A DNA stretch of 36,759 nt from Candidatus Parabeggiatoa sp. HSG14 (lineage in GTDB: Bacteria; Pseudomonadota; Gammaproteobacteria; Beggiatoales; Beggiatoaceae): assembly GCF_030378085.1 (NCBI RefSeq), contig NZ_JAUCGK010000008.1; one strand, given 5' to 3'. A program made the translations under genes and the position numbers. Position 1 is the stretch's first letter; every line of letters begins with the position of its first letter. Of this stretch, positions 31,675 to 34,362 are shown piece by piece. Under the pieces are notes generated by a model. That model did no database searches. It was not told the DNA's origin and saw only the letters and a list, made by a program, of their open reading frames with translations.

Positions 31675-34260
31675 TTAATTTCTCTTGTTATCGCTTGCTT
31701 TTGCCATGTTACCGAGTAATCCTTCGGCAGTATCAAACAAATTCACGGGACTATGACCATCAGTAATCAAAACGCTTTGTAAACCAAGTCCTTTCAACAA
31801 ATCAGCTTGCAAAGCAGGGCCTGCTTGTGCAATGGCTTTTAATGTTTCGGTACCAATAGCAGCCATGCGGTTTTTAAACTCTTCTGAGCGAATAGTTGCC
31901 ATACGTTCCGCCTTTTCAATTTCTAAGGTAGTTAAAGCTTTTTGATGTTCAAGTTCAGCAACTTGAGTCGCTTTAAGTTGTTCAAGATCAGTTTGGTTCC
32001 GAACACGAGCCGCTTCGCTGTCTTGTTTTGCAAGGTTGACAGTGGTTTCACCTTTGATACGACTCGCTTCTGCAACTGCTCTGGCTTCTGCTGTGGCTTG
32101 CCCTGTCGTTTCTATAGCCGCATTTTCGGCACGGAGTTCTAACAAATTTTTACGTTCTACCTCTGCTTGGCGAGTATCAACAATCCCTTGGCGTTCTAAA
32201 CGGGCTTTAGCTTCTTGTTCAACCCGTTCAGCGTCATGACGGGCGGCGGCTTCTTGAGCATCAGAAGTAATTTGGATGGCAATTTGTACCGATTTTTGCA
32301 AACTCTTTAAAGTTTCTTCATCCACCGGTTCAACCGATTTAATGTCAACATTAGTAATCACCAAATTATTACTGTCAAAACGGAATTCATTACGAACTCG
32401 CCCTTGTTCATCTGTACCAAATACAGACTCCCTAATAACTTTGGCTGAGTTGCGATGAAACTCATCAAATTTAACCCCTGCCACTTTCCCACGTACTCGT
32501 GATGGAATTGTTTTACAAGTATCACCCACAAAATCAGGCACTTGAAACATACGTGCAACAGTTTCTATATCATTTTTGTCAGGTACATCAAAATGCCAAT
32601 TATAAGCTAATTGCAACTGTAAACGGGCATGATCCGATGTTTCAACAGTAAACATATCAGTCATAAAATCTGGCCCCATGAACAAGGCAAGCGTTCTGAT
32701 GGCATGAGGTTGCTTAGGTTTACCTCCTGATAAACTTAACACAGTAAACGCTTCATCAGGTTCCAACATGACTAAATCCGGTCCAAAGACTACCCGTGCA
32801 GTACGATCTTTGTAATTATGGAGCTGTACCGCTGAGTTTTGTGGTACATGGAAAACTATCGCACGAGTGGGATCGCGTTTGCTTTTTTGCTCAGTTTCAG
32901 CGGTTTTACGCTGTGCAATTGGGCGACGCATTTCTACCATAAAATCAGACTGTTGTTCCAACAATTCTTCTACCAGCGGTGGCAATTCCTTTGTCCACAA
33001 TTCTTCATAAGGTGTTAGCATATAAGCTTTGGGGCCACTCACCAATTTCAATTCACCACTTTTTACATCGCGTACATAAATACCTTCGTTTTTATCCAAA
33101 GGAATGGCTCTGCGCCGTTCTAACACTTGAACTTGTACTGGGGGAATGTAATCGCAAGGGCCTTCTATCATCCATAAATCCCCAGGTTGGCGAGTGATGG
33201 CTTTATCACCACTACTATCAGCAAAGGTTTCTTTGGCTTTGAGTAATAGAGCTTCTTGTTCTCCCAACACATAAACCGCCTGAATACCACCATCTAAAGA
33301 TTCGCCAGGATGCAAGAAAAAGGAAAGGCAACCCTTACGGATTTCACTTTTACCTAATTGCGGTTTTCCTTCATCATCAATGGGATCTTGTACGATACAC
33401 CATTGCCGATCATCTAAGGTTGTAATCATCACTTCTTCGATGACTTCCTCATAAACATCCGGGATATGTGTTTCTACATCGTCAAAAGTAACCAACCACT
33501 CATCACCCGCTTTCCGTTTCTTGCCAAACACATCGACAAAGGTACGAAGCGCGCGTAATTGCAACGCCTTTTTCTCAGTCAATACATAAGCTTCTATTAT
33601 ATTATTAACTTCTTCATCAACCCCAGGCAAATACGCACCTTCTTTACGCACTAACCATTCTTCACCCGCTCGCCGTTTATTGCCTAAACGATCTATGCAG
33701 TCTTGCCGTGCTGACAAACAAAGTGATTCATTGGGTTTAATGATGATAGCTTTAATGGTTTCTAACACTTCAACATCTACGCGAGGAATATAAGTATTTG
33801 GCCCTTCAAACAACCATTCATCTCCCGCTAAATGTTTGATTTCATTATCATCAATTATTTCAATAAAATCACGAAGAGCGCGTAATCGTAAAGCCGTATT
33901 AGTTTCAACCACTTGTAAACGCTGAATTTTTTCAATCAATTCTTCGCCAGGATAGAGAGGGAAAGGCTCCTGAGAAAAACGGATTTCTGTGTCACCATAA
34001 GATAATTTAATTTGCCCAGAAGCATCACAGACAGGTTTCCCTTGTTCATTGCACAGCACAGGGTTAGCAATTGTACAATAGTGGCGCGGTGGAATGACAA
34101 TCATGGCATGAGGTTCAAGTACTAACCTCTCATGATCTTGTAACGTAATCGTTTGAGGTCCCACATCTAAGCGAGTAACCCCCGTATTATTGTCAAGAAC
34201 ATGAATGAATTGTTGTGGTTTTAGGCGAATAACGCTAGGCATTTGTGTATGAGTAGGCAT
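31675..34260 (-). CDS. mvp: Major vault protein (MVP) homologue, full length
   Basis: Long collinear blocks are nearly identical to metazoan MVP as I recall it. 'VIPPRHYCTIANPV' corresponds to 'VTVPPRHYCTVANPV', and 'GDEWLFEGPNTYIPR' to 'GDEWLFEGPGTYIPR'. 'ALRLRALRDF', 'HARLQLQLAYNWHF', 'VPDFVGDTCK' and 'LITDGHSPVNLFDTA' also match. The repeat domains, shoulder and cap-helix all appear to be present. The track ORF begins at a TTG (34293). The first ATG is at 34260, and by homology the start is probably the ATG at 34242 ('MPSVIRLKPQQFIHVLD' matching '[20 protein letters not shown]'). Its stop is 8 bp from the ung stop, convergently. Confidence 0.9.
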   Translation of the reverse strand: MPTHTQMPSVIRLKPQQFIHVLDNNTGVTRLDVGPQTITLQDHERLVLEPHAMIVIPPRHYCTIANPVLCNEQGKPVCDASGQIKLSYGDTEIRFSQEPFPLYPGEELIEKIQRLQVVETNTALRLRALRDFIEIIDDNEIKHLAGDEWLFEGPNTYIPRVDVEVLETIKAIIIKPNESLCLSARQDCIDRLGNKRRAGEEWLVRKEGAYLPGVDEEVNNIIEAYVLTEKKALQLRALRTFVDVFGKKRKAGDEWLVTFDDVETHIPDVYEEVIEEVMITTLDDRQWCIVQDPIDDEGKPQLGKSEIRKGCLSFFLHPGESLDGGIQAVYVLGEQEALLLKAKETFADSSGDKAITRQPGDLWMIEGPCDYIPPVQVQVLERRRAIPLDKNEGIYVRDVKSGELKLVSGPKAYMLTPYEELWTKELPPLVEELLEQQSDFMVEMRRPIAQRKTAETEQKSKRDPTRAIVFHVPQNSAVQLHNYKDRTARVVFGPDLVMLEPDEAFTVLSLSGGKPKQPHAIRTLALFMGPDFMTDMFTVETSDHARLQLQLAYNWHFDVPDKNDIETVARMFQVPDFVGDTCKTIPSRVRGKVAGVKFDEFHRNSAKVIRESVFGTDEQGRVRNEFRFDSNNLVITNVDIKSVEPVDEETLKSLQKSVQIAIQITSDAQEAAARHDAERVEQEAKARLERQGIVDTRQAEVERKNLLELRAENAAIETTGQATAEARAVAEASRIKGETTVNLAKQDSEAARVRNQTDLEQLKATQVAELEHQKALTTLEIEKAERMATIRSEEFKNRMAAIGTETLKAIAQAGPALQADLLKGLGLQSVLITDGHSPVNLFDTAEGLLGNMAKASDNKRN

Positions 34261-34362
34261 AATGGAATATAAAATGTAGAGGAAATGTGTCAAAAGCTAA
34301 AGCTTTGGATGCCAAATAATGCAGTTTTTGGAATAAGTACTGAAGCATAAGTTTTGAAGTAT

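Follow-up and report, generated by a model that had tools for sequence, protein, structure and literature searches.

A eukaryote-type major vault protein gene in the large sulfur bacterium Candidatus Parabeggiatoa

The genome of Candidatus Parabeggiatoa sp. HSG14, a large sulfur bacterium of the Gammaproteobacteria (Beggiatoaceae, genus Candidatus Parabeggiatoa) and not a cyanobacterium, encodes a complete major vault protein (MVP) of the eukaryote type. Taken jointly, the evidence makes it likely that the gene is a native, selected orthologue of animal MVP that was acquired anciently and whose product probably self-assembles into a hollow vault-like shell without the canonical partners. The gene lies in a stretch of 36,759 nucleotides of contig NZ_JAUCGK010000008.1, hereafter the window, from a metagenome-style assembly of 531 contigs (86.8% complete, 2.19% contamination) that also carries ung and lnt genes of proteobacterial type.

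Bacterial MVPs have already been described for Oscillatoriales, Myxococcales and Cytophagales (Daly et al. 2013, PMC3762200; Sokolskyi 2019, bioRxiv 10.1101/872010) and the family holds thousands of database entries, while a 2022 paper on recombinant vaults still says that vaults are absent from prokaryotes (PMC9778704). No paper joining the vault protein with Beggiatoaceae, Thiomargarita, Parabeggiatoa or Thioploca was found in the literature. What is new is the host lineage for a eukaryote-type MVP, the kind of gene being already known, and the host range of this type is extended from Cyanobacteria and Chloroflexota to Gammaproteobacteria. The function of the vault is a question that has stood for 40 years. 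With 51% identity to the animal protein and strong purifying selection acting on it, a bacterial MVP bears on that question, and its apparent lack of canonical partners points to the shell itself as the bearer of the conserved function; it also opens simple experiments. The value of the finding is reduced by the reports of bacterial MVPs in 2013 and 2019 and by the thousands of such proteins already labelled in databases.

Reading frame, start and borders of the gene

The first-pass annotation of this DNA had reported a minus-strand open reading frame at 31675-34293, with 872 codons counted from TTG. The frame is real and contains neither internal stops nor introns, but its start is moved to the ATG at 34260, which is most likely the true start and gives 861 amino acids, because the gene call P0002 of the protein collection holds the same 861 residues and the N-terminal length of the Thiomargarita orthologue agrees. 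A promoter-like TTGACA box starts with the TTG at 34293 (Table 1), and the position of this predicted promoter would place the transcript start at, or just before, ATG 34260. Over its 861 codons the assembled gene is neither truncated nor frameshifted. Other details of the annotation hold as well: the five peptides that it quoted are all found, at residues 55, 146, 544, 574 and 831 of the 861-residue form, the stop codon lies 8 bp from the end of the convergent ung gene, and the repeats that it saw upstream are in the intergenic region 34261..34664.

Table 1. Features of the MVP locus, in window coordinates
Feature	Position	Strand	Remarks
ung (family-1 uracil-DNA glycosylase)	30998..31666	+	NCBIfam ung equivalogs 2.5e-100; convergent neighbour, outside the MVP unit
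MVP gene	31675..34260	-	861 codons plus stop; ATG 34260..34258, stop 31677..31675; equals protein-collection gene call P0002
Cap-ring and C-terminal tail, residues 803-861	31678..31854	-	alignable through LITDG..VNLF motif; short helices 804-824, 841-848
Cap-helix, residues 648-802	31855..32319	-	one continuous predicted helix, 155 residues; aligns to rabbit MVP cap-helix
Shoulder domain (SPFH-like), residues 529-647	32320..32676	-	PF11978 1.4e-51, profile positions 1-118 of 118; same coordinates in whole-genome search
N-terminal repeat region, residues ~9-520	32701..34236	-	corresponds to rat MVP R1-R9; eight Pfam repeat matches
Sigma-70-like promoter match	34266..34293	-	TTGACA, 16-nt spacer, TATATT; 11/12 consensus positions, top match of scanned region; consensus match only
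120-bp palindromic MITE-like dispersed repeat	34333..34452	.	upstream of MVP; inverted 55-nt arms, 78% complementary
OmpR-family response regulator	34665..35369	-	Response_reg and Trans_reg_C; upstream of MVP, same strand; no demonstrated MVP link

Domains, alignment and predicted structure

Pfam matches on the protein are Vault in four copies (6.3e-68), Vault_2 in two (1e-34), Vault_3 (2.2e-34), Vault_4 (2.1e-16) and MVP_shoulder, all far over the curated cut-offs, the repeat families being PF01505, PF17794, PF17795 and PF17796. In a phmmer search against PDB sequences, query residues 19-863 (in the 872-residue numbering) align to residues 5-852 of rabbit MVP (9z4w_A) at E 3.3e-289, and the rat (4hl8/4v60) and human chains are likewise aligned end to end; identity to the rabbit, rat and human proteins is about 51%. 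The AlphaFold2 model, with a mean pLDDT of 75 and low values from residue 828 on, has an all-beta N-terminal half followed by the helix 648-802, which DSSP reads as 155 residues. The top Foldseek matches of this model are rabbit, human and rat vault chains, mostly at E 2e-79 to 3e-70 (5e-57 for the 2009 rat model), with 48-52% identity across some 800-850 columns, and its R1-R7 portion superposes on the crystal structures of murine MVP R1-R7 with a target-normalised TM of 0.90-0.91 and an rmsd of 2.8-3.1 A. The first-pass annotation had taken the protein for a full MVP that includes the repeat domains, the shoulder and the cap-helix, and had suggested a profile search: Pfam, end-to-end alignment, AlphaFold2 and Foldseek all back this view, and the alignment is full-length rather than local or short.

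The highest Kyte-Doolittle window of 19 residues reaches only 1.01, and the product is predicted to be a soluble cytoplasmic protein of 96.9 kDa without a membrane segment. In the shoulder, the nucleotide-pocket residues P508, H509, P565 and K573 (residue list from PMC12280208) are kept, while three of the eight residues of the human NAD+ pocket are changed, R507 to Q, R511 to I and L517 to F. Apart from this partly conserved pocket for NAD+ or ADP-ribose, no functional site appears to be traceable in the protein.

Relation to known systems

Animal MVPs (rat 4V60/4HL8, human 9BW5, rabbit 9Z4W) share with the window protein the length class, the domain order, the cap-helix of about 155 residues and 51-52% identity over some 810-850 aligned columns. 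They differ from it at the three pocket positions named above and in the sequence of a variable loop (residues 438-459 of the window protein), and the animal vault differs further in that the present host is a bacterium in which no TROVE or DUF4062 domain was found. Cyanobacterial MVPs (Moorena producens / Lyngbya majuscula F4Y3B4) belong to the same eukaryote-type bacterial group, are 64-71% identical and are likewise encoded by a stand-alone gene without conserved neighbours in filamentous gliding hosts; the window protein, by contrast, has a host in Pseudomonadota and falls in a separate Beggiatoaceae clade with 100% support.

More remote are the divergent bacterial MVP-like proteins of Myxococcales, Cytophagales, Saprospira and one Beggiatoaceae genome (G022), which share the MVP_shoulder family and a length of about 800-890 residues but sit on a very long branch, have an identity of only some 22-25% to the compared eukaryote-type proteins and are recognised by Pfam solely through the shoulder and one weak repeat; a profile search of the window genome returned no protein of this divergent kind. 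Asgard archaeal MVP homologues, which were found through structure, are reported to have five repeats and twilight-zone similarity (PMC12962969), whereas no repeat is missing from the window MVP, whose identity to the animal protein is about 51%. Proteins that combine an SPFH domain with a coiled coil build closed oligomeric domes (PMC12280208), and in the SPFH/band-7 cages (HflK/C, flotillin, prohibitin, stomatin, erlin) this combination resembles the shoulder and helix of MVP. These cages are, however, membrane-anchored and lack the nine beta-repeat domains, while the window MVP has no anchor and carries about 520 residues of repeats before the shoulder; identity between the two is 10-19%, with a target TM of 0.22-0.39 and E of 5e-7 or weaker.

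Phylogeny and distribution

Trees were built with FastTree on 90 rows and with IQ-TREE on 40 rows, both unrooted. The Beggiatoaceae MVPs form a clade of their own with 100% support, counting seven metagenomic sequences called Beggiatoaceae solely by clustering with named members, and this clade is not nested within that of the Cyanobacteria (99%); Chloroflexota are grouped at 80-90%. Bacterial MVPs are split at 99-100% support from the eukaryote-like representatives, of which the only named ones are Anaeramoeba, the sponge Corticium, the ciliate Platyophrya and Digyalum. By these trees, a bacterial clade of eukaryote-type MVP is patchily common to Beggiatoaceae, filamentous Cyanobacteria and some Chloroflexota. 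A phylogeny had been proposed at the outset as a check on transfer, and it does separate the bacterial from the eukaryote-like clades, but rooting gave no direction: with seven divergent bacterial MVP-like sequences as outgroup, the FastTree outgroup joined the long ciliate branch, which was flagged as a long-branch join, and a mixture-model analysis with that outgroup ended in a polytomy at the base, its outgroup branch being about 10 changes per site long. Since the clades are separate in unrooted trees, a bacterial origin of the eukaryotic vault would be compatible with them.

Eukaryote-type MVPs are seldom met in bacteria, with 73 loci in 185,579 species genomes, so the first-pass description of scattered bacterial homologues is right as to frequency, although the family was already described and has thousands of database entries. 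Members of the bacterial group, which come from three phyla, share 64-84% of their residues with the window protein and about 50% with eukaryotic MVP. Among 301 evenly sampled cyanobacteria, two carry a high-scoring, eukaryote-type MVP and 11 the divergent type. The MVP_shoulder family is present in 6 of 55 Beggiatoaceae genomes, representing 4 of 27 genera, five of them with the eukaryote type and one with the divergent type, and orthologues of the window gene occur in four other Beggiatoaceae genomes. The genomes compared include Thiotrichaceae bacterium S06.Bin195 (G011), an uncultured Thiomargarita sp. (G013) and, within the genus, 'Candidatus Parabeggiatoa sp. nov. 1' (genome G002, with a contig equal to QNER01001011.1). 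Three of the four other genomes of the genus, all 90-91% complete, yielded no MVP, and the gene is therefore dispensable. All four have ung, at 79-82% nucleotide identity and without an adjoining MVP; an empty site could not be defined by synteny within the genus, as only ung was common and the genomes are too rearranged.

Native status and selection

The MVP gene is natively encoded in the bacterial genome. Its GC3 of 0.304 lies close to the genome mean (0.295, sd 0.046), and its RSCU correlation with the genome, 0.90, stands at the 64th percentile of long ORFs, values that fit the A/T-rich codon usage, like that of its neighbours, noted in the first reading of the sequence. Dispersed repeats specific to this genome flank the ung-MVP pair on both sides, one of them beyond ung. 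The other, the 120-bp palindrome of Table 1, lies 73 bp upstream of MVP and has 341 blastn matches on 170 contigs of its own genome, with a full-length, 97%-identical copy on contig C4 and many copies in all four same-genus genomes; the genome contains 503 copies of its core TTGGAGTCCAA. Local G+C at MVP is 0.41-0.43, above the contig mean of 0.37, because first codon positions reach 0.58, which reflects amino-acid content. Codon usage, flanking repeats and orthologues in other Beggiatoaceae together sustain the earlier view that the gene is native and not a contaminant.

Against the Thiomargarita orthologue, dN/dS is 0.095 at a dS of 1.19 and is even across the domains, dS being saturated in the remaining MVP pairs. 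The cap-helix has a dN of 0.077 at a dS of 0.99, and the N-terminal repeats, which form the waist, a dN of 0.128 at a dS of 0.82, so that they are conserved like the rest of the protein. These rates indicate that MVP is under purifying selection.

A protein best known in eukaryotes, found in an assembly of 531 contigs with 2.19% estimated contamination and at a locus whose G+C exceeds the contig mean, might be suspected of being a eukaryotic contaminant or of owing its place to a chimeric join between ung and MVP. Either is nevertheless vanishingly unlikely, as GC3 and codon usage agree with the genome, the 341-match repeat stands just upstream and another dispersed repeat past ung, the orthologues from four other Beggiatoaceae assemblies make up a clade with 100% support, and the gene is uninterrupted, with a bacterial promoter-like site in front. 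A search of public sequencing runs for the gene listed none that contains it, RNA runs included. A native gene might still be a decaying relic without function, as its patchy distribution and the three same-genus genomes in which it was not found would allow; the intact frame of 861 codons, the low dN/dS over all domains and the 64-84% identity spanning three phyla make such decay very improbable.

Partners, assembly and alternative readings

The TEP1 domains TROVE (PF05731) and DUF4062 (PF13271; NADase) have no match in the 86.8%-complete genome, their controls having matched known genomes, and TEP1 is probably absent from the host. The PARP catalytic domain PF00644 gave no genome match, and its control likewise matched no genome; vault RNA RF00006 gave none either, with a control also devoid of any positive, and within the window no Rfam family reaches its gathering score. 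As vault RNAs diverge quickly, a bacterial analogue would be missed. The earlier statement that no vault partner is visible in the window therefore stands, and extends genome-wide for TROVE and DUF4062, while the PARP and vault-RNA blanks lacked a positive control. With the canonical eukaryotic partners apparently missing, any cargo must differ.

In the reading preferred here, a native and selected MVP, the gene would have entered an ancestor among the Beggiatoaceae long ago by horizontal transfer, to be kept in few lineages and lost in most, and it is probably expressed from the predicted sigma-70-type promoter directly upstream. Cap-helices of 155 residues would pack together with the SPFH-like shoulders to make a cup, and a pair of cups would meet at their N-terminal repeats, so that some 78 chains totalling 7.6 MDa would form a hollow shell. 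When recombinant animal MVP is produced in E. coli, vault-like particles arise, MVP alone being sufficient (PMC9778704), and, given this behaviour and the full-length conservation, the bacterial MVP probably self-assembles in the same way. The first-pass annotation had spoken of a vault shell of roughly 13 MDa, but 78 copies of the window protein compute to 7.56 MDa. A mass of 13 MDa is that of the complete eukaryotic vault ribonucleoprotein. A self-association prediction for two copies of residues 520-861 scored below the mark, which makes no call either way.

Two other readings concern what the protein builds. A true MVP homologue could assemble differently, into single cups or into rings of different symmetry, perhaps docked to a membrane or some other surface as SPFH cages are, in place of a closed vault made of two halves. 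This is suggested by the SPFH-like shoulder, for which Foldseek also returns the cages of flotillin, HflK/C, prohibitin and stomatin (E 5e-7 to 1e-3), by modelling of Asgard MVP homologues that pointed to a far smaller cup (PMC12962969), and by the fact that no imaged bacterial vault was found in the literature searched. We consider it unlikely, since nine repeats, shoulder, cap-helix and cap-ring follow one another as in animal MVP, with about 51% identity, the waist-forming repeats are as conserved as the rest, a membrane segment is absent and the E. coli particles of PMC9778704 were obtained from animal MVP. That the protein is instead a TolA-like 'colicin uptake' envelope protein is extremely improbable. 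NCBI and UniRef do name homologues, cyanobacterial ones among them, 'colicin uptake protein' or 'colicin transporter', and the charged coiled coil of the cap-helix resembles TolA domain II (bioRxiv 10.1101/872010), but Pfam finds only the five MVP families at E up to 0.001 and hence no TolA family, NCBIfam matches none, the hydropathy maximum speaks against a hydrophobic anchor and the alignment to MVP runs over the whole length. The colicin name is most simply explained as an artefact of the low-complexity coiled coil.

Beyond the preferred vault-like shell, a wider proposal can be put forward, as possible but on balance doubtful: large or filamentous Beggiatoaceae, Cyanobacteria and Chloroflexota would build true vaults from MVP alone, and the vault would be an ancient, partner-independent nanocompartment whose retention tracks large, multicellular, gliding cells and whose core job is tied to the shoulder pocket, through a nucleotide or NAD-derived ligand, or to a bacterial cargo.

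Gene neighbourhood

All-against-all clustering of ORFs within 10 kb of 72 MVP loci found no conserved neighbour. The families met there are all abundant ones, namely two-component signalling (27 loci), pentapeptide repeats (10) and aminotransferase (7). Two-component genes were considered as an MVP partner and rejected, the family being abundant in these genomes and its enrichment not clear, and none of the neighbouring families is judged to be a specific partner. A link through NACHT/FGE-sulfatase proteins was also discarded: a neighbour of a Thiomargarita MVP that has these domains and a 1080-residue FGE-sulfatase protein of the window, 5 kb off, share only a weak FGE-domain match (E 2e-4) and are not orthologues. 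In the defence context, PADLOC makes no call for MVP, and the one system that it reports is a type IIG restriction-modification enzyme at a distance of 23 kb. TAACTGA repeats, a known feature of marine Beggiatoaceae, are no more frequent in the window than expected by chance.

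The major vault protein gene

The minus-strand frame at 31675..34293, read by the first-pass annotation as a complete major vault protein (MVP) gene, runs without interruption and its translation contains all the peptides quoted there. Completeness is borne out by Pfam, which recognises four Vault, two Vault_2, one Vault_3 and one Vault_4 domains and a complete MVP_shoulder (E-values 6e-68 to 2e-16), and by phmmer against all PDB chain sequences, where residues 19-863 (872-aa ORF numbering) align in a single stretch with rabbit MVP 5-852 (E 3.3e-289), so that the similarity is end to end, with equivalent full-length matches to rat and human MVP. 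The AlphaFold2 model (26 sequences in the input alignment, mean pLDDT 75) has an all-beta N-terminal half followed by an alpha/beta shoulder, one helix at 648-802 and short C-terminal helices. Its best Foldseek matches are vault chains, at 48-52% identity across about 800-850 columns and mostly with E-values of 2e-79 to 3e-70 (5e-57 for the 2009 rat vault model), and its repeats 1-7 match the murine crystal structure with a target TM of 0.91 and an rmsd of 2.8 A.

The start required revision from the TTG at 34293 to an ATG at 34260, because P0002, the identical 861-aa independent gene call, begins there and the N-terminal length then equals that of the Thiomargarita orthologue; the gene is thus taken as 31675..34260. 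The TTG coincides with the first base of the TTGACA box of a putative promoter, proposed from its consensus match. The protein (96.9 kDa, acidic, pI 5.2) has no computed hydrophobic segment, and so should be cytoplasmic and soluble.

Features of the contig
Feature	Coordinates	Strand	Details
Type IIG restriction-modification enzyme	5297..8746	+	1149 aa; Eco57I/N6_Mtase; PADLOC REase_MTase_IIG 8e-53
Uma2-family endonuclease	15427..16158		further along the contig from the type IIG enzyme
Spike-tip-like protein	18502..20139	-	545 aa; residues 1-133 match PF19267, E 2.7e-7
HNH endonuclease	22841..23260		further along the contig from the type IIG enzyme
FGE-sulfatase-type protein	23348..26590	+	1080 aa; domain C-terminal, residues 856-1078
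LRR protein	26979..29747	+	922 aa; plant-type LRRNT_2 caps, 16 LRR_8 stretches
Dispersed repeat	30906..30997		far side of ung from MVP; 149 hits on 104 contigs, same genome
MVP gene	31675..34260	-	ATG at 34260, 861 residues; start as in P0002 and Thiomargarita orthologue
Sigma-70-like promoter match	begins 34293	-	TTGACA, 16-nt spacer, TATATT; best in region, 11/12 positions
Palindromic MITE-like repeat, 120 bp	34333..34452		73 bp upstream of MVP ATG; 341 blastn hits, 170 contigs
Dispersed repeat	36290..36530		short, intergenic; 327 hits

Origin of the locus

The window is one whole contig (C18) of a 6.62 Mb assembly in 531 contigs, with 86.8% completeness and 2.19% contamination. Foreign DNA might be suspected from the locally raised G+C around MVP (0.41-0.43), the source of which is its first codon positions (0.58); its GC3 of 0.304 lies close to the genome mean of 0.295, and its RSCU correlation with the genome (0.90) is typical for long genes. 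Dispersed repeats of the same genome flank the ung-MVP pair on both sides, and all those of the window recur in the four same-genus genomes. Given this agreement in codon usage and these genome-wide repeats, contamination or a chimeric join at MVP is very unlikely, and the earlier view of a native gene is upheld. Both lnt and a family-1 ung are encoded in the window, whose host is a member of the Beggiatoaceae, a large sulfur bacterium. The three repeat segments represent several families of short repeats dispersed between genes, the 120-bp palindrome having the core TTGGAGTCCAA; they are distinct from the TAACTGA repeats known in marine Beggiatoaceae.

Distribution and history

More than 2,500 significant homologues were found among the candidates scored in the protein collection, the closest being metagenome proteins (75-84% identity), followed by those of filamentous cyanobacteria (about 67-72%). 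The latter are called 'major vault protein' by JGI and 'colicin uptake protein' by NCBI; the NCBI name is unfit, as the window protein matches Pfam MVP families and no NCBIfam, and has no hydrophobic segment. When 185,579 species genomes were scanned by pattern, 73 MVP loci emerged: five in Beggiatoaceae/Thiotrichaceae, a few in Chloroflexota, one labelled Actinomycetota and the remainder in filamentous cyanobacteria. In an even cyanobacterial sample, the high-scoring type occurs in 2/301 genomes and a divergent type in 11/301. Shoulder matches are present in six of 55 Beggiatoaceae genomes (4/27 genera), five of them of the eukaryote type, and within the genus MVP is found in one of four other genomes and ung in all four.

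Another Beggiatoaceae genome (G022) encodes a second, very divergent MVP-like protein of 834 aa (L008:7336-9840), whose recognised domains are limited to the shoulder and a weak Vault_3. Its identity is 56-61% to the proteins of the 11 cyanobacteria with the divergent type, but no more than about 22-25% to those eukaryote-type MVPs with which it was compared. The two types therefore have separate patchy distributions over the same phyla.

FastTree (90 rows) and IQ-TREE LG+C20 (40 rows) phylogenies are mutually consistent, and both support clades of Beggiatoaceae (100%), Cyanobacteria (99%) and Chloroflexota (80-90%), which are jointly split from eukaryote-like representatives with 99-100% support; neither resolves the branching order among the three. 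The transfer between eukaryotes and bacteria raised by the first-pass annotation may have run in either direction, as rooting with the very divergent bacterial type failed. The pair formed with the Thiomargarita orthologue has a dN/dS of 0.095 (dS 1.19), evenly over repeats, shoulder and cap-helix; synonymous sites are saturated in the remaining pairs. We infer that Beggiatoaceae gained MVP by horizontal transfer long ago, and that vertical descent with frequent loss followed, under strong purifying selection wherever MVP was retained.

Partners, assembly and shoulder pocket

The TROVE and DUF4062 hallmarks of TEP1 were not found in the 86.8%-complete genome (controls were positive elsewhere), in line with the earlier observation that no partner is visible in the window; genome searches for a PARP catalytic domain and for vault RNA, in which no control was positive, gave no matches, and no Rfam family scores within the window. 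No specifically conserved neighbour gene family accompanies MVP across 72 loci, no two of the three Beggiatoaceae contexts examined are alike, and PADLOC gave no defence-system link to MVP, which is here a stand-alone gene. In an uncultured Thiomargarita, a 987-aa NACHT/NPHP3_N protein (L007:9553-12516) with a weak FGE-sulfatase match lies convergent with MVP; TEP1 also has a NACHT domain. The link was rejected: the protein is not kept beside MVP elsewhere, nor is it orthologous to the FGE-sulfatase-type protein of the window.

The vault shell is built by MVP alone, each half comprising 39 chains with cap-helices bundled at the cap and SPFH-like shoulders beneath, while the N-terminal repeats provide the barrel and waist contact. 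Since the repeats, shoulder and cap-helix are all present and conserved, the chains would be predicted to assemble into a hollow shell of ~7.6 MDa, a computed value that replaces the mass first proposed. Even E. coli yields vault-like particles when it expresses recombinant MVP (PMC9778704). Eight residues are reported to line the NAD+/ADP-ribose pocket of human MVP or to respond to it (PMC12280208; see also bioRxiv 10.64898/2026.05.01.722283). Here P508, H509, P565, K573 and probably an arginine near 437 are kept, whereas R507, R511 and L517 are replaced by Q, I and F, so the putative nucleotide pocket is partly conserved.

Reports of bacterial MVP homologues, from Oscillatoriales, Myxococcales and Cytophagales, date back to 2013 (Daly et al., PMC3762200) and 2019 (Sokolskyi, bioRxiv 10.1101/872010), and a 2026 paper still speaks of 'only a few Bacteria' (PMC12962969); the literature searched held no joint mention of vault protein with Beggiatoaceae, Thiomargarita, Parabeggiatoa or Thioploca. 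The novelty is therefore the host lineage, and the first-pass annotation, sound in observation and interpretation, needed correction on prior art as well as on gene start and shell mass. The gene per se will not surprise a specialist; the point of interest is a eukaryote-type MVP kept without canonical partners in giant sulfur bacteria, which opens simple tests of whether bacteria build vaults.

Other genes in the window

PF19267, matched by the spike-tip-like protein, is a contractile-injection-system spike tip family; the adjoining ORFs have no family match. The N-terminal 850 residues of the FGE-sulfatase-type protein likewise match no family, and their coding DNA is strongly enriched in A (AT skew 0.32 across 24-26 kb). 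The LRR protein looks recently acquired from its composition, with a GC3 of 0.486 against the genome mean and an RSCU correlation of 0.40, where the 1st percentile for long ORFs is 0.52; its homologues include Ca. Parabeggiatoa and Ca. Halobeggiatoa proteins and, with 30-45% identity, receptor kinases of plants.
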